DNA of 64,000 bases from Verrucomicrobiota bacterium. Lineage in GTDB: Bacteria > Verrucomicrobiota > Verrucomicrobiia > Limisphaerales > UBA8199. Of the stretch, positions 5,152-46,644 are shown piece by piece. Position 1 is the stretch's first letter. Each line of letters begins with the position of its first letter. The notes under the pieces were generated by a model, which was given only the letters and a program-made list of their open reading frames with translations, was not told the DNA's origin and ran no database searches. Both the position numbers and the translations under genes were made by a program. Location: the NCBI GenBank assembly GCA_049518415.1, contig JBEKRX010000028.1, forward strand, positions 4,604 to 68,603, in the 5' to 3' direction.

Positions 5152-5838
5152 ATGCAACACATCGAACAACATTTCTCCGGGAGCGATGCCGTCCGCGACG
5201 TGGTGATTGGCATGGCGGATGGGTTGACGGTGCCGTTCGCCTTGGCTGCGGGCATCTCCGGCGCGTTGACCTCCACGCACATTGTCGTCACGGCCGGGCT
5301 GGCGGAGATTGCCGCGGGCTCCATCGCGATGGGACTGGGCGGCTACCTGGCAGCCAGGAGCGACCTGGAGCACTTCTTCAACGAGCGACGGCGCGAAGAA
5401 CAAGAGATTGTGGAGAAAGCGGACGTCGAAAAGCAGGGAATCGTGGACATCTTCCAGCAGTATGGGGTGACGGCAGAGGAATGCGCATCCATCGTCACCG
5501 CGCTCGAACGGAAGCCCGAAGCGTGGCGGGATTTTATGATGCGCTTCGAGTTGGGTTTGGAAGAGCCGAACCCCAAACGGGCCATTCGCAGCGCCCTCAC
5601 CATCGGGGGGTCTTACATCGTCGGCGGTCTGGTGCCGCTGGCGCCTTACATGCTGATGCACGATTCCGGGCGGGCGCTGGGGGTCTCGGCCGCCATCACG
5701 CTGCTGGCCCTGGCGGTGTTTGGCTTTGTGAAAGGCCACTTCACCGGCGTTCCCAAGCTGAAGGGAGCGCTGCAGACGGCCCTGGTTGGCAGCCTGGCGG
5801 CGGCGGTGGCCTATCTCATCGCCAAATTCGTTGCCTGA
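5152..5838 (+). CDS. VIT1/CCC1-family iron/manganese transporter
   Basis: 228-aa ORF with the family N-terminal block (VRDVVIGMADGLTVPFALAAGISGA), a central acidic cytoplasmic helix region (ERRREEQEIVEKADVEKQ) and C-terminal TM helices. Confidence 0.85.
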   Translation: MQHIEQHFSGSDAVRDVVIGMADGLTVPFALAAGISGALTSTHIVVTAGLAEIAAGSIAMGLGGYLAARSDLEHFFNERRREEQEIVEKADVEKQGIVDIFQQYGVTAEECASIVTALERKPEAWRDFMMRFELGLEEPNPKRAIRSALTIGGSYIVGGLVPLAPYMLMHDSGRALGVSAAITLLALAVFGFVKGHFTGVPKLKGALQTALVGSLAAAVAYLIAKFVA

Positions 5839-5854
5839 TTTGAAGTCTCGCCTG

Positions 5855-7720
5855 TTACAGTGAACGGCCCATTCCGTTCGCCGCCCGAGGATTCAAGTAA
5901 TTGGCCAAAGCCATCACTGGAAAGGTCTTGGGATACGCCGGGTATTCCATGTACAAAATGCCGGGATGTCCAGTCCCGACCACGGAGCCATCCCGCCAGG
6001 ATTCCGACTCGTCCCGGGTTTCGAGGAGGTAATGGACGACCTTGGGGACAGTATCGGTATGTTGCAGGCCCATCTGGCAGAGAAACTCCAGCACCCACGC
6101 GGTTTGCGTCGGGGTGCTGGCCCCTCGGCCCCGATGCCCATCATCAAGGTAGGACAGCGTCGATTCGCCGAATCCGCCATCGGCATTCTGAAAACTCATG
6201 AGCGTCCGGGCGGCCCTCTGGAGGTAGGGCGCTTGCGGGGATTCTCCGGCCCGCAGCAGCCCGGTGCCGGCCTGGGTGGTCCCGTAGAGGGTGTTGATCC
6301 CCCAGCGGCCTTCCCAAAGGCCCGTGCCGGAATCCTGGGTCCGACGTAGAAAGCGGGCCGCCCGCCTGACCGCTCGGGAGCCATCCAAGGTCAATCCATA
6401 AGCGCCCAGTGCTGCCAGCACATGGCCCGTGTTATCCGCCGAGCTGTCATCAAACAATTTCACCGAATCGCTTAGCTCCTTGGTGAACAGCTTCACCATC
6501 CGGCTTCCGACGTTGTTCTTGTCAAAGGCTCCCCAGCCGCCGTCGGAGTTTTGCCGGTCCAAAAGCCACTGCAGTCCCTTTTTCCGGGAGTCCGCCGCGC
6601 CTGTTCTGCGGGTGAATCGCGCCATCTTCTCCAGGAACACCAGCGCCCTGGACGTGTCATCGACGTCCGGGTATTGCTCGAAGTCCCGGCCGTAGGGGAA
6701 GCCGCCTTCAGCAGTCTGCAGTTCATAGAGATTCTCGGCGGCCTGCACCAGCGGAGTGCTCGTTTCGCCGGCCTGGGCCAGGGCCTGGGCCGAAAGGATG
6801 GTATCCCAGACACCGCCGTCCATCAGGCAGCCGAGGTAGTTACCCTTGCCATGGTCGAAATACAGCCCATCCACGAACTCTAATCCCCGCTTTATTGCTG
6901 ACGGGATGGCGGGAAAACGCCCGGGATGCTTCCGGTAAAAATGGTCCAGCGCGGCGACGCTGAACAGGGTCGAGACCGTGTAGCCGCCCCAGCTTCCATG
7001 TTTCCGCTGCTGCCGGAGGATTTTTTTGACCATGAATCCGTCATACCAGGCAGAGGGTTGCGCTTCTCCTTGGCTGGGCTGCCACGGATTTCTGGCATAA
7101 AGCTCGCTCAAGTCAAATTCCGGCCCAAACGTGCCGCGGACCTTCCTGGAAACGCGATTATGCCGGAGGTAGGCCATGGGGATCAGGTGGGGAATGACCC
7201 ACTGGGAAAACTCCCGGTAGTTCAGCGGCAGCGCCTCCAGGAAAATCAGGTAGGGGATTTCGCAGATGTCCTCCCATCCCCGCACTCCGAAGAGCGCCAG
7301 GAAGGTTTTGGTGAACTGATTGGCGGAATCGATCCCCCCGGCATCCAGGATGAATTTTCTGGCCGAATGGATCGCCGGTTCTACGTTTGCGGTCGAGATC
7401 GAGGTTCTGAACAACTTAAGCGCGGCATAGTTGAGCAGGGTCGCATTGATGTCACCCGAAGGAAGCGCCGGGTCCCGGGCCTGCCTCCAGGAGCCGTCCG
7501 GCAATTGGGCTTTCAGAAGGATTCCGGCCAGGCGGTTTAAGTCCAGCCGGGAGGAGAATCCCCGGAACCGGAGCCATTCCAGAAACAGCGCATAGAGCGA
7601 AATATAATGGGACCCCAGGTGGGCGGGAAAACTCCAGCAGCCTTGGCTGTCCTGTTGGCCCAACAGGGTGTTAACCGATTGCTTCAGGATCGTTTGCACC
7701 TTATGCTTTGATAAACTCAT
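5855..7720 (-). CDS. shc: squalene-hopene cyclase
   Basis: 621-aa ORF with repeated QW-type motifs (QDSQGCWSF, LPDGSWRQ, QRKHGSWGG, QTAEGGFPYG, QNSDGGWGAF, QDSGTGLWEG, QNADGGFGES) and the class II cyclase DxDD motif (PDVDDTSRA). Confidence 0.85.
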   Translation of the reverse strand: MSLSKHKVQTILKQSVNTLLGQQDSQGCWSFPAHLGSHYISLYALFLEWLRFRGFSSRLDLNRLAGILLKAQLPDGSWRQARDPALPSGDINATLLNYAALKLFRTSISTANVEPAIHSARKFILDAGGIDSANQFTKTFLALFGVRGWEDICEIPYLIFLEALPLNYREFSQWVIPHLIPMAYLRHNRVSRKVRGTFGPEFDLSELYARNPWQPSQGEAQPSAWYDGFMVKKILRQQRKHGSWGGYTVSTLFSVAALDHFYRKHPGRFPAIPSAIKRGLEFVDGLYFDHGKGNYLGCLMDGGVWDTILSAQALAQAGETSTPLVQAAENLYELQTAEGGFPYGRDFEQYPDVDDTSRALVFLEKMARFTRRTGAADSRKKGLQWLLDRQNSDGGWGAFDKNNVGSRMVKLFTKELSDSVKLFDDSSADNTGHVLAALGAYGLTLDGSRAVRRAARFLRRTQDSGTGLWEGRWGINTLYGTTQAGTGLLRAGESPQAPYLQRAARTLMSFQNADGGFGESTLSYLDDGHRGRGASTPTQTAWVLEFLCQMGLQHTDTVPKVVHYLLETRDESESWRDGSVVGTGHPGILYMEYPAYPKTFPVMALANYLNPRAANGMGRSL

Positions 7721-7828
7721 GACAGTCGGGCGAAAAAGTGGCCTCGTCTGTGGCTCTCCATGGTGGGGAGTGGCCTGCCCAGAACTTGACGAAAGACTCC
7801 TCTCGCTCAGGCCTCACAATACTGATCT

Positions 7829-8104
7829 TCAAGACGGAGTCGGGACCCCCGGACTCGCCGCCACGCCTGGCTGCGAAACCATACTGCAGGTGGACGTGCC
7901 GAGGGACGGCGATGGGATTGAGACCCGAACGTTGCGGAGGTGGTCCAATATTCCGAACACGTGCAGCAGCCAAAGGACTACGACCACCACCACCACGATA
8001 TTGAGGATCTTTTTGATCTTGCCATCCATGGGGATGTAGGTGTTGACGAGCCAGAGCAGGACTCCGACAACGATGAGAGTGATGACAATTGTAATTAACG
8101 ACAT
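7829..8104 (-). CDS. small hydrophobic membrane protein (Thivi_2564-like)
   Basis: N-terminal 60 aa form two hydrophobic helices (MSLITIVITLIVVGVLLWLVNTYIPMDGKIKKILNIVVVVVVVLWLLHVFGIL), resembling a recurrent small membrane-protein family. The C-terminal tail may be read-through. Confidence 0.55.
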   Translation of the reverse strand: MSLITIVITLIVVGVLLWLVNTYIPMDGKIKKILNIVVVVVVVLWLLHVFGILDHLRNVRVSIPSPSLGTSTCSMVSQPGVAASPGVPTPS

Positions 8105-8569
8105 AATTTTACCTGTTCTTCCTTATGTGTTCTTTCTTTGGGTGCGGGTTCATGTCTGTGCGGCATCCTTTAGCGTGTGGTGTGCCAGGGGTGCTCCGCG
8201 CTGGGCGGGACAGCAAGTTCAGTTCGGGGTGGTCGCTACTGTAAAACTCGCAACCGCCCTGCCGGCAACCACTTGCCTCGCACTTTCGATTGAGCCAGGA
8301 ACGGAAAATACCGGGCCGGGTCAAAAGCCCCGACTCCGCCAGACCTCGGTTGCGTCTGCAAAATGCAAGACGAAGCGGCCTCGATAGCGCAATACGCACG
8401 GTTCGTTGATCGGCGCTCGTGCAAACTGCACGAGCATTATGTTCCGCTCGGCCGTGCTAAAGTCCATTCAAGAGACTCTAACTGGCTTTGAACCAACAGG
8501 TTGCAGAAAGCCGCGGGAAGTTGGCTCTCCGCTAGCTAAGACGGCAAGGGAAAACTCAGCAAAGCCAAC

Positions 8570-38055: not shown

Positions 38056-39072
38056 ATGAATACTCTAAATGCGGCCGTGAATCGTGAGAAAGTCGTCAAA
38101 GTCCTGAACGGGTGGGTGATGTTGCCGATTGTCTTCATTCTCTTTTTCGGGGCGATCGCTTTATTTATCTATTCCCTCAGCCCCGGCGCCCGGGTTGAGG
38201 ACCATCCCGTGTGGAGTCTTTTCGTGAGCTCGCTGCTGATCGAAATTGCGGCCATCATCATGTTTAAGGGATTCTTCGCGCTGCAACCGAACGAGGCCAG
38301 GGTGCTGGTGTTGTTTGGCGCCTACAAGGGCACGGTGCGGGCGCCGGGGTTTCATTGGGGCAATCCGTTCTACTCGAACGGTCCGGACCAGCCCGGGCCG
38401 CTGCGCGTTATGGCGGAATGGCAGGCCAATCTTGCTGCGCGCAAGGCCGGCGGGGCGGAACCGGGCCGCAAGAGGCAGGCGCGCTTCAAATTTTCGCTGC
38501 GGACCCGCAACTTCAACAGCGAGAAGCTCAAGGTCAATGACAAGCGGGGCAATCCGATTGAGATTGCGGCGGTGGTGGTCTGGCGCGTGGAGGACACGGC
38601 GCAGGCGGCCTTTGAGGTGGATGACTATGAAAACTACGTGCGGGTGCAAAGCGAGTCGGCCATCCGGCACCTGGCCAGCGCCTACGCCTACGACTATGGC
38701 GAAGAGCATGAAGTCACCCTGCGCAGCGGGATGGACGAAGTCTCCCAGGCGCTGAAAGTGGAGTTGCAGGCGCGTCTGGACAAGGCGGGGGTGCTGGTGG
38801 AAGAGGCGCGTTTGACGCACCTGGCGTATGCGCCGGAGATCGCCCAGGCGATGCTGCGGCGGCAGCAGGCGGAGGCGGTGATTGCCGCGCGGCAAAAGAT
38901 CGTCCATGGCGCCGTCAGCATGGTGGAAATGGCCTTGCGAGAACTGGCTGAGAAACAGGTGGTGCAACTGGACGACGAACGCCGGGCCGCCATGGTGAGC
39001 AACCTCATGGTCGTGCTTTGCGGCGAGGCCGAAGTGCATCCGGTGGTGAACACGGGAACGCTTTACGCGTGA
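38056..39072 (+). CDS. SPFH/band-7 domain membrane protein
   Basis: Two N-terminal TM helices, then [30 protein letters not shown] and a coiled C-terminal [20 protein letters not shown] segment typical of SPFH proteins. Confidence 0.85.
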
Positions 39073-39079
39073 ACTGGGC

Positions 39080-39292
39080 ATGGCCGAACGCAAACCGTTC
39101 CTGTTGCGCATGGCGCCCGAACTTTGGGCCGACCTCGAGGCCTGGGCGAAGGATGAACTGCGGAGTGTCAACGGCCAAATCGAATACCTCCTCAAACAGG
39201 CCGTGCAGAAGCGCAAGGGTCCGCGCCGCCAAACCAACCCGGGCGCCGAGGGTCCGGACCTGACCCGCACGCGGGGGAGGGATGCTGGGTGA
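39080..39292 (+). CDS. Arc/ribbon-helix-helix-like small protein
   Basis: 70-aa ORF 7 nt after the SPFH stop. [38 protein letters not shown] has the strand-helix-helix pattern of Arc/MetJ-type proteins. Confidence 0.6.
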
Positions 39293-41038: not shown

Positions 41039-41872
41039 TCAAAAGTAGCTCAGGAATTGCTGCATAAGCTCAAACGCGCGGCGAGCTTGCATCGCCTGTG
41101 TTTCCGCATCAACCGCACCGTGAAACTCCACGACTTGTCCCGGGCCAAAAGCGTCCACACTGGCAAATTTTTCCCGCAGGATTTCGAGTGCTCGGGCAAC
41201 TTCCTTCTCTTTGAGCCCGTTCTTCCAAACGGTAGCCAACGCGTTCATGCCGTCCGGAAAGTGTTCGAGACAATAGCAGAAATCGTACGCATCTTTGGGC
41301 TTGTCTCGCCCGGCCAAAGCATGTGCCTTCATCACCAGGAAGTCTGGCAGTGATGCGATGCGCCAGCGCACCTTGTTATTGGCCCCGCGCACTGTCCTGC
41401 CCGAAACCTCCATCCTTACCGGTGCGCGGAATGCCGCACCACAGGCATCCGCCTGCAAAACCCGGAAACCTTCCAGAAGTTTGGGCCGATTCCTTTTCAG
41501 CTTCACTTGCCGCGACGCCAGGAATTCGACTTCCACTTCAACCGGCTTCTCGCCGTCCTTCAAGTCCACCTCGACCACGAGTTGAAACGGTTTCGCTCCA
41601 CGTTTGTAGCGGCCAGTGTCCAGCAGCAGCTTGAGCAAGTCAGCATATCGGCCATCGGCGAGTTTCTTCGCATCGAGAGCCAGGTCCACGTCAATGCTCC
41701 CAACGTGTGGTTCGTCCGCTTGTTCCAACAGGAGATCGGGCACCCAACCACCGACGACCACAAGACAGTCTTCAAACGCCGCCAATACCTGCCCAAGGTC
41801 AACCAGAACGCGCCGAGCGGCTTCGACTTGGCGCGGACTGTAGTCGTCACGCTGGCGAGGTTCGGGATTCAC
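41039..41872 (-). CDS. nucleotidyltransferase, AbiEii/AbiGii-toxin-like
   Basis: The GTG at 41872 overlaps the upstream stop (GTGA). NTase-fold motif LVVVGGWVPDLL...GSIDVDLALD and C-terminal GRDKPKDAYDFCYCLEHF as in AbiEii-type proteins. Confidence 0.7.
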   Translation of the reverse strand: MNPEPRQRDDYSPRQVEAARRVLVDLGQVLAAFEDCLVVVGGWVPDLLLEQADEPHVGSIDVDLALDAKKLADGRYADLLKLLLDTGRYKRGAKPFQLVVEVDLKDGEKPVEVEVEFLASRQVKLKRNRPKLLEGFRVLQADACGAAFRAPVRMEVSGRTVRGANNKVRWRIASLPDFLVMKAHALAGRDKPKDAYDFCYCLEHFPDGMNALATVWKNGLKEKEVARALEILREKFASVDAFGPGQVVEFHGAVDAETQAMQARRAFELMQQFLSYF

Positions 41873-42984
41873 AATAAACCTCGCGCTTTCCAGGCACGCT
41901 TGAGATTCTGTTCCAGCAACGCTTCGGCGGCCTCTTCGCCGCGTCCGCCGCAATGAAACAAGTCCACGTAAGTTTGCACCGCGTTGGTGCAAGCCAGCCG
42001 GTCGGCCTCTCCTTCCCGTAGATAGAATACGCCCTCATCGGCGGGGATGAGCACCACGAGGTTTTCGCCTGAGTCCACGAGCTTCGCTTCGGCCGCGTCC
42101 CGAAAAGCGTCCTCCCATTCCGCACTGACAAACACCCACGTTTTGGGTTGTCGCACATGCGGTGCCTGGAAATCTGCGGCAGAGAACGCGGCGTAAGCTG
42201 CGTGTCCTCCGATGATGGATTCAAGTGGGGCGAGTTTCTCTTGCAGTTGCCGGCCTTGCAGCAGTGTGAAATAACTGCGGCGCTGGTGACGGTCAAAGCG
42301 GTAAGCGTCGCGCCACGCCGTCAGTAATTCGAGCGGAGCATGCAACTTGAAGCCGCCGTCTGGCAGATCCTCAATAAATGCTTCGTCGTGGAGATGGCGG
42401 ACGACTTTGTTTACCAAACCAATGCTGACGTTAGGTTGAGAGTGAAGTCGCAAGTCTTGTTGAGTCCATTTCCGCCCGGCATTGTCCGTTGCGAGCAGTG
42501 CGCGGATGACACGCGCTGCTTCAGGAGTGCCGAGATTGGCTGAGCGTCGCTGAGGGCCATGTACAGGCTCTTGACCCGTTCTTTCGAGGTGCAACACGCC
42601 GGGCACGCTCAGGCGATAGTTGCCCGCAAGATCGAACCAACTCCAACCATGTTTCTGGCAGATTTCTGCCATTCGTGGCGAAATATACGGCGCGGCAAAA
42701 ACAAACACCTGAGGTTTGCTTGCAGGTTGATAATAATGGGTGACGTCAACGTAAGGAAACTGGGAAGGGCGCGGGTCGGCCTTGCACTCGACGTGTAACT
42801 CGGCCGTAATGCCACCCGGCAGCGGCAAGGTGGCTGTTATATCGAATCCAGCATCATCCCTGAATGCTGCCAGAGCCCGCTGGACTTTCCAGTCCTTCAG
42901 CCACGGCACACCTCCAAGCAATTCACGAAGCTTGTCTGCGACTGCCTTTTCCAGCGCGAAACCAGATATCCGCGCCTTGTTCAT
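41869..42984 (-). CDS. AbiEi-antitoxin-like protein with N-terminal PD-(D/E)xK nuclease-like module
   Basis: The N-terminus has D..(E)xK spacing (AGFDITATLPLPGGITAELHVECKAD). The middle is a winged-helix-like segment (WTQQDLRLHSQPNVSIGLVNKVVRHLHDEAFIE). The C-terminus (TWVFVSAEW...NLVVL...VQTYVDLFHCGGRGEEAAEALL) resembles the AbiEi C-terminal domain. Confidence 0.65.
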   Translation of the reverse strand: MNKARISGFALEKAVADKLRELLGGVPWLKDWKVQRALAAFRDDAGFDITATLPLPGGITAELHVECKADPRPSQFPYVDVTHYYQPASKPQVFVFAAPYISPRMAEICQKHGWSWFDLAGNYRLSVPGVLHLERTGQEPVHGPQRRSANLGTPEAARVIRALLATDNAGRKWTQQDLRLHSQPNVSIGLVNKVVRHLHDEAFIEDLPDGGFKLHAPLELLTAWRDAYRFDRHQRRSYFTLLQGRQLQEKLAPLESIIGGHAAYAAFSAADFQAPHVRQPKTWVFVSAEWEDAFRDAAEAKLVDSGENLVVLIPADEGVFYLREGEADRLACTNAVQTYVDLFHCGGRGEEAAEALLEQNLKRAWKARGLL

Positions 42985-43000
42985 GGATTCGGCACTTTCA

Positions 43001-43033
43001 CGTTTTCGTGAACATAGGCGTTTTCGTGAACAT
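43001..43033 (-). promoter_or_regulatory. two perfect 15-bp direct repeats (candidate operator) upstream of the AbiEi-like gene
   Basis: cgttttcgtgaacat at 43001-43015 and again at 43019-43033 (3-nt spacer), starting 17 nt upstream of the ATG at 42984. Confidence 0.5.
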
Positions 43034-43100
43034 GCTCAAGCGCATTTTTTGTCTTTTTAAGCAACGAAGTAAACGAAGTGGGGTCACGTCTGAATGGCAG

Positions 43101-43457
43101 TTAGTTAAGCCCTAAGGTCTTCTTGCTGAGCATCTTGCGTCGAGAGGTGCTGGGCAGATGCTTCCACATGTAATCCAGGGTGAGCCGGTACATTTGACTG
43201 AGGAGGTCCTTAACCTTGCGTTGGTTGGCGATGGCCCGTTTCAGCCAGGCAAACTGCTCCGGACTCAAGGCAGCGGTGACCGTCTTGCCCTGCACCCGGC
43301 GGGACCACTGGTAACGTGGTCCGCCTTGGCCCGGTAACTTGCGTTCCAGGACGCTGCCCAGCGCGATCCAGCCAATTTGTTCCAACCGGGCGCGCAAGCG
43401 CCGATAGGCGGCTGGGAGTTGGGCGTCGGCGGCCGGTTTAGCTCGTTGCATGAACAA
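43101..43457 (-). CDS. hypothetical protein (DUF6788-like)
   Basis: 118-aa ORF. GSVLERKLPGQGGPRYQWSRRVQGKTVTAALSPEQFAWLKRAIANQRKVKDLL resembles, from memory, small DUF6788 proteins, which are often seen in mobile contexts. Here it lacks the usual Cys pair. Confidence 0.5.
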   Translation of the reverse strand: MFMQRAKPAADAQLPAAYRRLRARLEQIGWIALGSVLERKLPGQGGPRYQWSRRVQGKTVTAALSPEQFAWLKRAIANQRKVKDLLSQMYRLTLDYMWKHLPSTSRRKMLSKKTLGLN

Positions 43458-43578: not shown

Positions 43579-46500
43579 CTACTTTTGCGCGAAACGCGCC
43601 AGGACGGTCGCGGAGCCGAGGTTGCCGGGCAGTTGCACCCAGTCGCCTTTGAATTGGCGCCACGGTTTGCCGTTGAGCGTGACCGAGGCCAAGGGGCGCT
43701 GGTGGGGGTCGCGAAAGCGGAGGCGGAGTTCCTTGGGCGGATTGCGGCGGGGGCCATCGACTTGGGCGGTGATTTCACTCTCGCCAGCCGTGTAAAGCAC
43801 GCCGGCCGGGCCGAACCAGGTGGCGGCGTGTTGGAGGCCGCACTGCCGGCCCGGCAGGAGCCAGTCGCGGGGCACGGCCTGGCCCAGCAGGAGGGCGTCG
43901 CCCTCCTCGCGCAGGAAGACCTGGCGCAGCCAGCCGCAGGCATTGGCCTCGTCGGAGCTTTTGTAATGGTCGCCGCGCCAGTCACCCATGTTGGGCAGGG
44001 CGTGCTCGGTGTTCATGTGGACGTCCGGGAAGTGGCTTACGGCAATGGCGTTGAACATGGCGCGGAGGGCGTGCTTGACGTCGTCGCGGCGGAGATAAGG
44101 CTCCACGTCCAGGAGCAGGCAGGCCTGCATGGACATCCCGCCGCGCCCGAACCAGTCGCGGTCGAAATCGTCGAGCGTGTAGCCGTACTGGTTGGAGAGA
44201 TAGAGATTGTCTTCGTAATCCTTGAGAATCCACTGGGCTTCCGGGGCGCGCGGGTCCAGGGCGCCGGTGATGAGGAGGTGCAAGGCGCCTTCGAGGGTTT
44301 CGCAAATCCAGCCGAAGCTGCGGCCGCGGCGCTGGACGTAGGAAGGGAAATGCGGCACGGCGGTGCCGTCGCGCAGGCGCACCACGGGCGAGCGTTGGGC
44401 GGCCTGGCGAAAGTTGCCCAGGAGGCGGGCGTGAAAGGCGTCGGCCGCCTGGCGGATGCGTTTGGCTTCGGGATGCTGGAGCTGTTCCAAAGCCCAGGCC
44501 GCGGAGTCAAGTCCGCGCCAGGTGTAGCAGCTTGTCGAAAGCCAGGTCCACCAATCGCCGATGTCTTCGAGGCTGCCGGCGGGCAGGAGGCCGCGTTCGA
44601 GTTCCTGCCGGCCGGCGGTGCGCGCGCTCTCACGGATGATCCAATCGGCCCCGGCCAGCAGGCCCGGGGCGGCGTGGCGCAGCCAGGCCCGGTCGCGGGT
44701 AAAGCGGTAATGCTCGGCCAGGCACCAGAGAATCCAGCCGTGATGCTGGTTGTAGCCGCCGGCCTCGTAACCGCCGGCGCCGTAGAGGACGCCTTGGCGG
44801 GAGGAGAAGTCGCCGGGCAAGCCAACAGTGCCTTGATAGTGGAGCCAGGCCTCCAGGCATTGGCCGGCCTCCTGGTGATAGCCGCGGCGGTCCAAGTCCA
44901 CCACCATCATGCAGGACTCGTTCCCGTAGGCGCCGTAACTGAAGGAACCGACGCGCGCAAACCGGCGCTCGCTGTTCGGCTCACGCTCGCAGTTGATGAG
45001 CAAGTGCCCGGCGTGGGCGCGATAAAATTCGTCGAGCACCGGCTCCGGGGTGGTTAGCCGCGCGCTTTCATTGAGCCGCCGCCGCCAATAGCCGGCCACG
45101 GCGGCCCGCTCGGTCTCGAAGTCCAGCCGCCCCAGGGCCGCCTGTTCGGATTTGTCCGCCAGCACCAGATAAGGGATTTTGACCACGACCGTTTTGGACT
45201 CGCCCGGCGGCAGGGTCCAGGTCCAGTTCAGGGTTTGGCCGGCCAGGGCGGGCGGGCCATCGGCGAGGACTTGTGCGCGGAGGTTCTGAGCGAGCCAGAG
45301 CCGGCCCTGCTCGTCGGGGCGCAAGGCCTTTGGCGCCTCGGCGGCACCGTAGGTCAGAGGCAGGAGGGCGGTCCGGGGCGCCGCCGAGATGTTGGTCATC
45401 ACGAACCGGGCCAGGAACACGGTCAAGGCGTCGGCGGGCGGCGCCGGGGCGTCCGCACGGGCGCCATCCAGTTCGGTGACCAGGGCGGTTTGGGAGATTC
45501 TGAGTCCGTTGATTTCCCAGGTGGTATGGCAGATGGGGAGGCAGTCCTCCTGGAGGTGGCGTTCAACCGGTTGGGGCAGCGCGCCGAAACCAACGCGCAC
45601 CGGGTCCGGTTCCAGGCTCAGCCGGGGCGTGTCGTTGCCGGGGCGATGCAGGAGATAGTGGTCGTTGGAGCGAAAGAGCACCGCGCCGTTGGCCTCCAAC
45701 TGGAAGCGCTGCCGTCCGCCATCCAGGCCGAGTGGGAAATAGATGTGAGATTTTTTTGGGGGCATGTTGTTCCAGGCGGCGCGCCAGGTCTGCTCCGGCA
45801 GTTGGGCGACGCGGTCATAGAGGGTGCTGGCGTGCCGGTCCCGTTGCGCGGCGGCCACGGCGGGGTAAGCGCGGGTGTCCGCGCCGGGCAAAACCGCCAC
45901 GCCGAAACACGGCAGGAAGAGGGCTTCCTGGGCCACGTCCTCGGCGCGAAAGGTGAAGACCGCCGGGCCGTTCCTGACGGTGACCAGGGTGCGGTCGAGC
46001 GTGTTCGGGTCGGCATTGGCCGCGGCCTTGAGGGTGATGCGGTAATCGCGCGCGGAAAGCCGCTGGACGCTCTGGACCTCGCCATTGAAGGCGGTCACCT
46101 GCGGCCGGCGCGGAGATTTGGCCCACGCCAGCCGGACCATGCGCTGCTGGTAAACCGAATCGGTAAAGGCCTCCAGGCGGGCAATCCTGGGGAGGGCGCC
46201 GCCCGACTGCAGGCGGAGCTTGAGGGTGTAACGGAAGCGGGCCGCGTAGTCCTTGAGTTGGGGATACTCCTTCTCATTGACCGGGCGGAACGAAAAGGTG
46301 ACCCGGGAGCCATCGGCCTTCGCCTCGGCGTCGGCCAGGCGCCAGCCGCCGTTGTACCAATTGCCCAGTTCCATCCAGCCGACGTCGCCGCCGCCCGGCT
46401 GGCGGTCTTTAGGCAGATGTTGTTGCGGCCAGCGGCTGCCCCAGTATTCCAGGCGGAGGCTGGCGGGCGGCGGGGCGGGGCCATCGAACTGGACGGTGAC

Positions 46501-46644
46501 CTGGTGAATCTCGCGCGGGTCTTCCCAGCAGAGGCCGTTGCCCTCGGGCAAGGGAAGGCCGAATGGGGCGGCATCAAACGAGGCCGCGGCGCAACTGCAG
46601 AGCGAGGCGAGGCAAAGGCAAGTGGAGCGCAAGGGCAGGTTCAT
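43579..46644 (-). CDS. large secreted protein, possibly glycoside-hydrolase-like (alpha/alpha toroid region)
   Basis: 1021-aa ORF with a signal peptide (LCLASLCSCAAAS). The central and C-terminal region (GGYNQHHGWILWCLAEHYRFTRDRAWL, GLLPAGSLEDIGDWW) resembles six-hairpin glycosidase folds. Function not established. Confidence 0.8.
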   Translation of the reverse strand: MNLPLRSTCLCLASLCSCAAASFDAAPFGLPLPEGNGLCWEDPREIHQVTVQFDGPAPPPASLRLEYWGSRWPQQHLPKDRQPGGGDVGWMELGNWYNGGWRLADAEAKADGSRVTFSFRPVNEKEYPQLKDYAARFRYTLKLRLQSGGALPRIARLEAFTDSVYQQRMVRLAWAKSPRRPQVTAFNGEVQSVQRLSARDYRITLKAAANADPNTLDRTLVTVRNGPAVFTFRAEDVAQEALFLPCFGVAVLPGADTRAYPAVAAAQRDRHASTLYDRVAQLPEQTWRAAWNNMPPKKSHIYFPLGLDGGRQRFQLEANGAVLFRSNDHYLLHRPGNDTPRLSLEPDPVRVGFGALPQPVERHLQEDCLPICHTTWEINGLRISQTALVTELDGARADAPAPPADALTVFLARFVMTNISAAPRTALLPLTYGAAEAPKALRPDEQGRLWLAQNLRAQVLADGPPALAGQTLNWTWTLPPGESKTVVVKIPYLVLADKSEQAALGRLDFETERAAVAGYWRRRLNESARLTTPEPVLDEFYRAHAGHLLINCEREPNSERRFARVGSFSYGAYGNESCMMVVDLDRRGYHQEAGQCLEAWLHYQGTVGLPGDFSSRQGVLYGAGGYEAGGYNQHHGWILWCLAEHYRFTRDRAWLRHAAPGLLAGADWIIRESARTAGRQELERGLLPAGSLEDIGDWWTWLSTSCYTWRGLDSAAWALEQLQHPEAKRIRQAADAFHARLLGNFRQAAQRSPVVRLRDGTAVPHFPSYVQRRGRSFGWICETLEGALHLLITGALDPRAPEAQWILKDYEDNLYLSNQYGYTLDDFDRDWFGRGGMSMQACLLLDVEPYLRRDDVKHALRAMFNAIAVSHFPDVHMNTEHALPNMGDWRGDHYKSSDEANACGWLRQVFLREEGDALLLGQAVPRDWLLPGRQCGLQHAATWFGPAGVLYTAGESEITAQVDGPRRNPPKELRLRFRDPHQRPLASVTLNGKPWRQFKGDWVQLPGNLGSATVLARFAQK

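Follow-up and report, generated by a model that had tools for sequence, protein, structure and literature searches.

We analysed a 64,000-nt stretch of a Verrucomicrobiota genome (assembly GCA_049518415.1, contig JBEKRX010000028.1, positions 4,604 to 68,603; hereafter the window), focusing on an AbiE-like toxin-antitoxin pair encoded on its minus strand. The upstream gene (41869-42984) encodes an antitoxin-like protein of 371 aa, and the downstream gene (41039-41872) a toxin-like nucleotidyltransferase of 277 aa. An earlier note, made from the sequence alone, had described the two open reading frames (ORFs) as coupled by a GTGA overlap, and this was found as stated: at positions 41872-41869, the stop codon TGA of the antitoxin-like gene (41871-41869) shares bases with the GTG start codon of the toxin-like gene (41872-41870). 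The GTG start is supported by the homologues, hundreds of which have the same usual length of 277 aa and commonly begin with MNPEPRQ. By the same two features, an alternative 317-aa toxin initiated from an upstream TTG is not supported.

The 277-aa protein belongs to the DUF1814/AbiEii/MenT nucleotidyltransferases, in agreement with the earlier note. It matched the Pfam family AbiEii (PF08843) with 30.1 bits (cut-off 22.5) and the AbiEii model of PADLOC with an E-value of 1.7e-6. The motifs G41-G42, S59-I-D61-V-D63 and K193-D-A-Y-D197 were invariant in an alignment of 20 diverse homologues, down to 38% identity. Judged by these motifs, the pol-beta nucleotidyltransferase signature typical of DUF1814 toxins is complete in this protein. 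S59, one of the invariant residues, precedes D61 by two positions, i.e. with the same spacing as in S78-K-D80 of MenT3. No relatives of the toxin were detected in viral contigs, and a phage origin of the pair was rejected on these grounds.

In the 371-aa protein, the only Pfam family matched was AbiEi_2 (PF09952), which aligned with residues 214-361 (41902-42345) at 22.5 bits (cut-off 21). Among 32 diverse homologues, 30 matched the same family, the lowest E-value being 6e-15. As for the remaining AbiEi families, no match to AbiEi_1, AbiEi_3 or AbiEi_4 (COG5340-type) was obtained in Pfam at E<=1, and phmmer retrieved no solved AbiEi or Rv2827c structure from PDB. Searches of PDB sequences with the protein and with a profile of its N-terminal part gave nothing meaningful, and NCBIfam yielded zero matches. 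An AbiEi-like ending of the upstream protein, as suggested earlier, thus holds in the sense of AbiEi_2 but not of the COG5340-type antitoxins. PF09952 has been equated with COG4861 (PMC7251935), and the pairing of COG4861 with DUF1814 (COG4849) was reported by Dy et al. 2014 (PMC3985639), with MenA2-MenT2 of M. tuberculosis (Rv0837c-Rv0836c) as an example (PMC3985639, PMC3968373, PMC7450476). From the Pfam matches, this equivalence and the published pairing, it follows that the locus represents the second known AbiE-like class (COG4861/PF09952). It is not a canonical AbiEi to which a domain was added, as had been proposed in the earlier note. The COG subclass of the toxin would be COG4849, as expected from the reported linkage to COG4861 (PMC3985639).

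An AlphaFold2 (AF2) model of the whole 371-aa protein, based on 21 homologues (pLDDT 75), consisted of three parts: an N-terminal alpha/beta domain, a winged helix-turn-helix (wHTH) at residues ~150-215 (42340-42537) and the C-terminal domain. The winged-helix middle, already noticed from the sequence, comprised helices 154-164, 175-181 and 188-200 and two strands. Foldseek aligned it with MarR, TubR, CadC and IclR structures, and the corresponding region of homologues matched the Pfam families MarR, MarR_2 (at 1e-5), Crp and TrmB. We presume that this domain, which begins only at residue ~150 and is therefore internal, binds the operator. The C-terminal domain presumably neutralises the toxin, a role transferred from AbiEi, whose C-terminal domain by itself gives antitoxicity (PMC3985639). 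Four cysteines invariant in the close subfamily (C67, C109, C332 and C345) were considered as a metal or Fe-S site, but this idea was dropped, since the conservation of C332 and C345 does not extend to the wider family and V, A or T often stands in place of C67. One 353-aa homologue (P0132) is a natural deletion derivative, in which the first ~250 residues of an antitoxin homologue are joined to the last ~100 residues of a toxin.

Pfam annotation is blank for the first ~210 residues of the antitoxin-like protein, and the N-terminal head (residues 1-138, 42571-42984) was characterised by its predicted structure. Modelled alone with AF2 from 30 diverse sequences, it reached pLDDT 89 and pTM 0.84, and showed an alpha-beta-beta-beta-(alpha)-beta-alpha-beta layout (helix 8-24; strands 33-36, 49-54, 60-67 and 92-98; helix 103-111; strand 115-118). 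Residues 70-88 are clearly helical in more distant homologues, and the head therefore has the classical alpha-beta-beta-beta-alpha-beta core. When compared with PDB by Foldseek, its top matches were nearly all PD-(D/E)xK enzymes, including EndoMS/NucS, MspJI, BstEII, Can2, Hjc, VC1899, Cap4, EcoO109I and Card1. The probabilities of these matches reached 0.99 and their TMq 0.57, but the E-values were weak, the best being 4e-3. The window protein retains E12 in helix 1, D48 where strand 2 starts, and E66 and K68 (E66-C-K68) where strand 3 ends; these are the positions predicted by the PD-(D/E)xK fold. The invariant D118-L-A-G121-N122 motif of the head follows the last core strand. On the level of sequence, the window protein had no significant sequence or profile match to any curated PD-(D/E)xK family, and no Pfam nuclease model reached its cut-off. 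Sub-threshold Pfam matches were nevertheless obtained with divergent homologues, namely to NucS_C in four of them (best 2.2e-4, 21.6 bits against a cut-off of 24), to Mrr_cat in three (5.4e-4), and to HSDR_N, Mrr_cat_2, DUF4365 and Hjc. Because the layout of the model, the Foldseek matches, the residue placement and the clan matches of homologues agree, we accept the PD-(D/E)xK fold of the head with good confidence. The suggestion that the N-terminus resembles a restriction endonuclease was thus borne out for the first ~135 residues, and D48 and E66-x-K68 fall on the strands where they would be expected.

Whether the head acts as a nuclease is a separate question, for which we examined the conservation of its residues in 177 full-length family members and counted the minimum numbers of state changes on a FastTree tree. 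D48 was conserved in 95% of the members, and K68 and E12 in 83% each, but position 66 was acidic in only 56% and occupied by V in 28%. Even the closest homologues (74% identical) have V at this position. The residues conserved in 99-100% of the members (P73, D118, G121 and N122) lie outside the classical triad. At least 27 switches between acidic and non-acidic states were required at position 66, 22 changes at E12 and 20 at K68, compared with seven at D48 and one at D118. Since the ExK residues have been lost and regained repeatedly, nuclease activity is unlikely as the core function of the head, and the role conserved in the family is more likely a structural or DNA-binding one than cleavage. 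This also weakens the idea of the earlier note that the head provides a second effector.

The opposite explanation deserves consideration, namely that the head functions as a nuclease or senses DNA, and that the supposed antitoxin is a second effector, or a trigger which detects or cuts invading DNA and thereby releases or complements the nucleotidyltransferase. The window protein has E12, D48, E66 and K68 correctly placed in the structure, the full set is present in 67 of the 177 members, and the other three residues are still 92-100% conserved among the 50 members with V66; moreover, the defence nucleases MspJI, Can2, Cap4 and HamA are among the fold matches. Given the repeated switches at three of the four positions, V66 in the closest homologues, the location of the most invariant residues, the weak Foldseek E-values and the failure of all Pfam nuclease models to reach their cut-offs, we regard this explanation as improbable. 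As the V66 group keeps E12, D48 and K68 and the window protein has the complete set, an active or ligand-binding site might exist in some lineages, including the window protein, although we would give this only a small chance. Somewhat more doubtful still is the specific version in which antitoxins keeping all four residues couple the detection or cutting of invading DNA, by a nuclease or a sensor of DNA ends or structures, to release of the tRNA-modifying toxin. If it were true, the module would be a dual-effector defence system and not a plain toxin-antitoxin pair.

The head is not peculiar to the window. A word-indexed search retrieved more than 1,387 proteins, and the best 120 all covered the full length at 61-78% identity. 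In all, the head occurs in more than 1,300 full-length homologues belonging to many phyla. The earlier note had envisaged an alignment with family members to see how common the extension is, and an exhaustive HMMER scan with the head alone revealed it family-wide, in 169 clusters at 50% identity. Nearly all of these clusters comprised either short fragments or proteins 350-400 aa long that begin with the head, and those head-containing proteins that were checked also possessed PF09952 behind the head. In PLSDB, homologues were present on 49 plasmids, from Ralstonia, Agrobacterium, Cupriavidus, Sphingobium, Rhodococcus, Deinococcus and others; in 21 of the 49 the homology extended over at least 80% of the query and took in the head. 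RefSeq names these plasmid homologues "type IV toxin-antitoxin system AbiEi family antitoxin", adjoining an "AbiEii/AbiGii toxin family protein". The source genome itself contains a second pair on another contig (G000 contig C1, ~101.1-103.0 kb; locus L082, 850-1968 and 1950-2771), which has overlapping genes and is 34-38% identical to the pair in the window; its antitoxin (34% identical) has the head and matches PF09952 with 60 bits. As far as can be judged from these architectures, the build of head, wHTH and C-terminal domain is the family norm and no new fusion. In none of the papers searched did we find the nuclease-fold head described for a COG4861-type antitoxin.

A candidate promoter and operator (42996-43039, minus strand) was recognized upstream of the antitoxin ATG, where a perfect 15-nt direct repeat occurs with an 18-nt period. 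The predicted -35 box TTGAGC (43039-43034) is followed by the half-site GTTCACG (43031-43025) and by its second copy (43013-43007), which is overlapped by the predicted -10 box TATGTT (43016-43011). After four further nucleotides comes a third, inverted half-site CGTGAAA (43002-42996), and the ATG begins 11 nt beyond it. The architecture was fixed in 68 of 75 aligned upstream regions from several phyla: TTGnnn as the -35 box, 1-3 nt, GTTCACG, 11 nt (10 nt in three loci), GTTCACG, 4 nt, CGTGAAC, mostly 12 nt (11 nt in the window) and the start codon. A TAT preceding the second GTTCACG completes the -10 box TATGTT. The heptamer has a frequency of only ~0.47 per kb across these loci. We consider the conserved operator strong indirect evidence which points to autorepression, a behaviour demonstrated experimentally for COG5340 AbiEi and MenA3 (PMC3985639, PMC7319586).

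The second pair of the source genome and a pair from a Bosea plasmid carry a different repeated half-site, TTTCAGCA. Because the half-sites differ, the two systems of the source genome are probably insulated from each other. In detail, the half-site upstream of the second pair reads TTTCAGCA / TGCTGAAA and is common to the pair on a conjugative plasmid of Bosea vaviloviae (L089). The operator also accounts for an apparent extra domain: many database homologues (P0002, P0011, P0036, P0059, P0087 etc.) start ~40 codons too early, and their N-terminal extension of ~40 aa is the translated operator preceded by a mis-called start (HVH..VH corresponds to CATGTTCAC repeats; 'HVHD..VHG.VK').

Genome assemblies of Verrucomicrobiota, Planctomycetota, Acidobacteriota, Binatia, Fibrobacterota and others provided 81 loci in which the pairing of the two genes was examined. 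In 76 of them the antitoxin was immediately followed by a nucleotidyltransferase; in some of these (L005, L008, L055 and L057) the toxin was truncated while the antitoxin was intact. The remaining five loci had no toxin match (L001 and L006 on the same contig, L019, L038 and L058). In a survey of 30 related genomes plus the source genome, 11 of 12 toxin matches (source genome excluded) adjoined an antitoxin match; the single exception was a short fragment at the end of a contig (G012:C569), with its upstream side out of view. Antitoxins without a toxin did occur (G002:C12, G004:C102 and G011:C13), and in one case (G002:C8) a frameshifted antitoxin adjoined a toxin stub. This asymmetry, with orphan antitoxins but paired toxins, is the pattern expected of an active toxin dependent on its antitoxin. 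Close homologues were distributed patchily, being present in one of three same-genus genomes, and patchily within the family too. Together with the low GC content of the region (0.54-0.59 over ~40.9-43.5 kb, against 0.63-0.70 in the flanks), which agrees with the lower-GC islet noticed previously, the patchy distribution indicates that the pair was horizontally acquired and is mobile. A same-genus genome was also compared as an empty site, but synteny was limited to the hydrolase gene of the left flank, and the borders of the islet are not definable from it.

Some orphan antitoxin homologues were located 80-113 nt upstream of conflict-type genes. In one case (L001/L006/L086) the orphan precedes a Metallophos (SbcD-like) and SMC/AAA_15 (SbcC-like) pair (7289-8404 and 8401-11190 in L001), and in another (L038) it precedes the AEP primase-helicase of a TOTE system (5256-7646). 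This could reflect replacement of the toxin, or mere neighbourhood within defence islands.

Such orphans also bear on another explanation, by which the pair is a decayed or domesticated remnant comprising a non-toxic MenT2-like nucleotidyltransferase and an upstream protein that serves merely as a transcription factor. MenT2 was indeed non-toxic in two hosts (PMC7450476), and antitoxin homologues standing alone before the SbcCD-like and TOTE genes would fit as well. Yet both genes in the window are intact, all catalytic motifs of the toxin are invariant, and the toxin is better conserved than the antitoxin within the same loci (up to ~90% versus ~71% identity). Since toxins, moreover, nearly always adjoin an antitoxin while antitoxins without toxins occur, i.e. 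the pattern of an active toxin, a remnant seems quite unlikely.

Taken together, these results make it very probable that the pair is a toxin-antitoxin module, self-contained and horizontally mobile, which belongs to the MenA2-MenT2-like (COG4861-DUF1814) branch of the AbiE/MenAT family. According to the proposed model, the 371-aa protein would bind the GTTCACG half-sites through its wHTH and repress its own operon, possibly with help from the head, which would then mediate oligomerisation or contact DNA. The C-terminal domain of the protein would neutralise the toxin by direct binding, by causing auto-phosphorylation at the invariant Ser59, or by both. The conserved operator and the asymmetry of orphans are indirect hints of these two activities, neutralisation of the toxin and repression of the antitoxin's own promoter. 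MenA1, MenA3 and AbiEi are known to induce auto-phosphorylation of their toxins at a Ser or Thr by the catalytic Asp (S78 in MenT3, T39 in MenT1, T65 in AbiEii; PMC11375011; bioRxiv 10.64898/2026.01.19.700257). On this basis AbiE has been reclassified as type VII (same references), so that the type IV label used in the earlier note is dated. The freed toxin would add nucleotides to the acceptor ends of tRNAs and stop translation, the known MenT toxins adding nucleotides to tRNA acceptor stems (PMC7450476, PMC10435456); growth inhibition by such modification is likewise predicted for the window toxin by analogy. The outcome could be plasmid or island stabilisation, or abortive infection. The head would be an ancestral, family-wide domain whose catalytic triad is under non-uniform selection.

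Several points weigh against this model. The window protein itself scores barely above the PF09952 cut-off (22.5 versus 21 bits). Searches of PDB sequences with the toxin and with the toxin profile gave no match to solved MenT or AbiEii structures; the tRNA target and the phosphorylation of Ser59 are for this reason drawn solely from analogy. There is no experiment on any COG4861-type antitoxin, and MenT2, the sole tested toxin with a COG4861 partner, was non-toxic in M. smegmatis and E. coli (PMC7450476).

The pair resembles MenA2-MenT2 and other COG4861 pairs in that a large putative antitoxin, with a wHTH and a PF09952 C-terminal domain, is located upstream of, coupled to and larger than a PF08843 nucleotidyltransferase (PMC3985639, PMC3968373, PMC7450476). 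In contrast to MenA2-MenT2, it belongs to a subfamily of verrucomicrobial type that has a GTTCACG operator of its own, the likeness to the M. tuberculosis pair being one of published description; unlike MenT2, which was non-toxic in the hosts tested, the window toxin has all motifs intact. With AbiEi-AbiEii (Streptococcus agalactiae, Lactococcus), MenA3-MenT3 and MenA4-MenT4 (COG5340-COG2253), it shares a bicistronic operon, a DUF1814 toxin with the GG, DxD and K..D motifs and a Ser/Thr by the catalytic Asp, an antitoxin with a wHTH and a (here presumed) C-terminal neutralising domain, and repeat operators overlapping the promoter. However, the window antitoxin comes from a sequence family unrelated to canonical AbiEi, without AbiEi_1/3/4 matches; its wHTH is internal and not N-terminal, it possesses the extra ~138-residue PD-(D/E)xK-fold head, and its operator has three 7-nt half-sites instead of the two 23-bp inverted repeats of canonical AbiE. 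As for the head, the core fold with E on helix 1, D on strand 2 and ExK on strand 3 is that of the NucS/EndoMS C-terminal domain and the Hjc, Mrr and MspJI catalytic domains, and homologues of the head give sub-threshold Pfam matches to NucS, Hjc and Mrr. It differs from these enzymes by the lack of a significant sequence match, by triad residues variable across the family, by fusion to a wHTH and an antitoxin domain, and by having its most invariant motif, D-L-A-G-N, after the last core strand.

The locus is thus an intact, ordinary member of a known, catalogued and widespread branch of the family. The observation made from the sequence was confirmed, and its first interpretation is partly supported. 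COG4861-DUF1814 pairs are abundant: metagenomes contain thousands of copies of this subfamily alone, and further pairs reside on plasmids of plant-associated Proteobacteria and, as MenA2-MenT2, in M. tuberculosis. Details such as the nuclease-fold head, which has been little described, and the conserved operator are useful for annotation; they do not constitute a new kind of system, and the locus changes no concept.

Within the same islet, a gene of 118 aa (43101-43457, minus strand) is located 116 nt upstream of the pair and belongs to DUF6788 (E 2e-12), as the earlier note had recognized. It occurs in two copies in the source genome, the other being at G000:C67:41654-41815. DUF6788 was considered as a third component of the module and dismissed, as it was found upstream of the pair in 0 of 71 related loci; this neighbour is unrelated to the toxin-antitoxin pair. 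Next to it, a 1,021-aa ORF with a signal-peptide-like N-terminus (43579-46644, minus strand) had no Pfam match at E<=0.001. On the other side, an SPFH/Band 7 gene (38056-39072, plus strand) is followed after 8 nt by a 70-aa ORF (39080-39292, plus strand) encoding a CopG-like ribbon-helix-helix protein (RHH_5).

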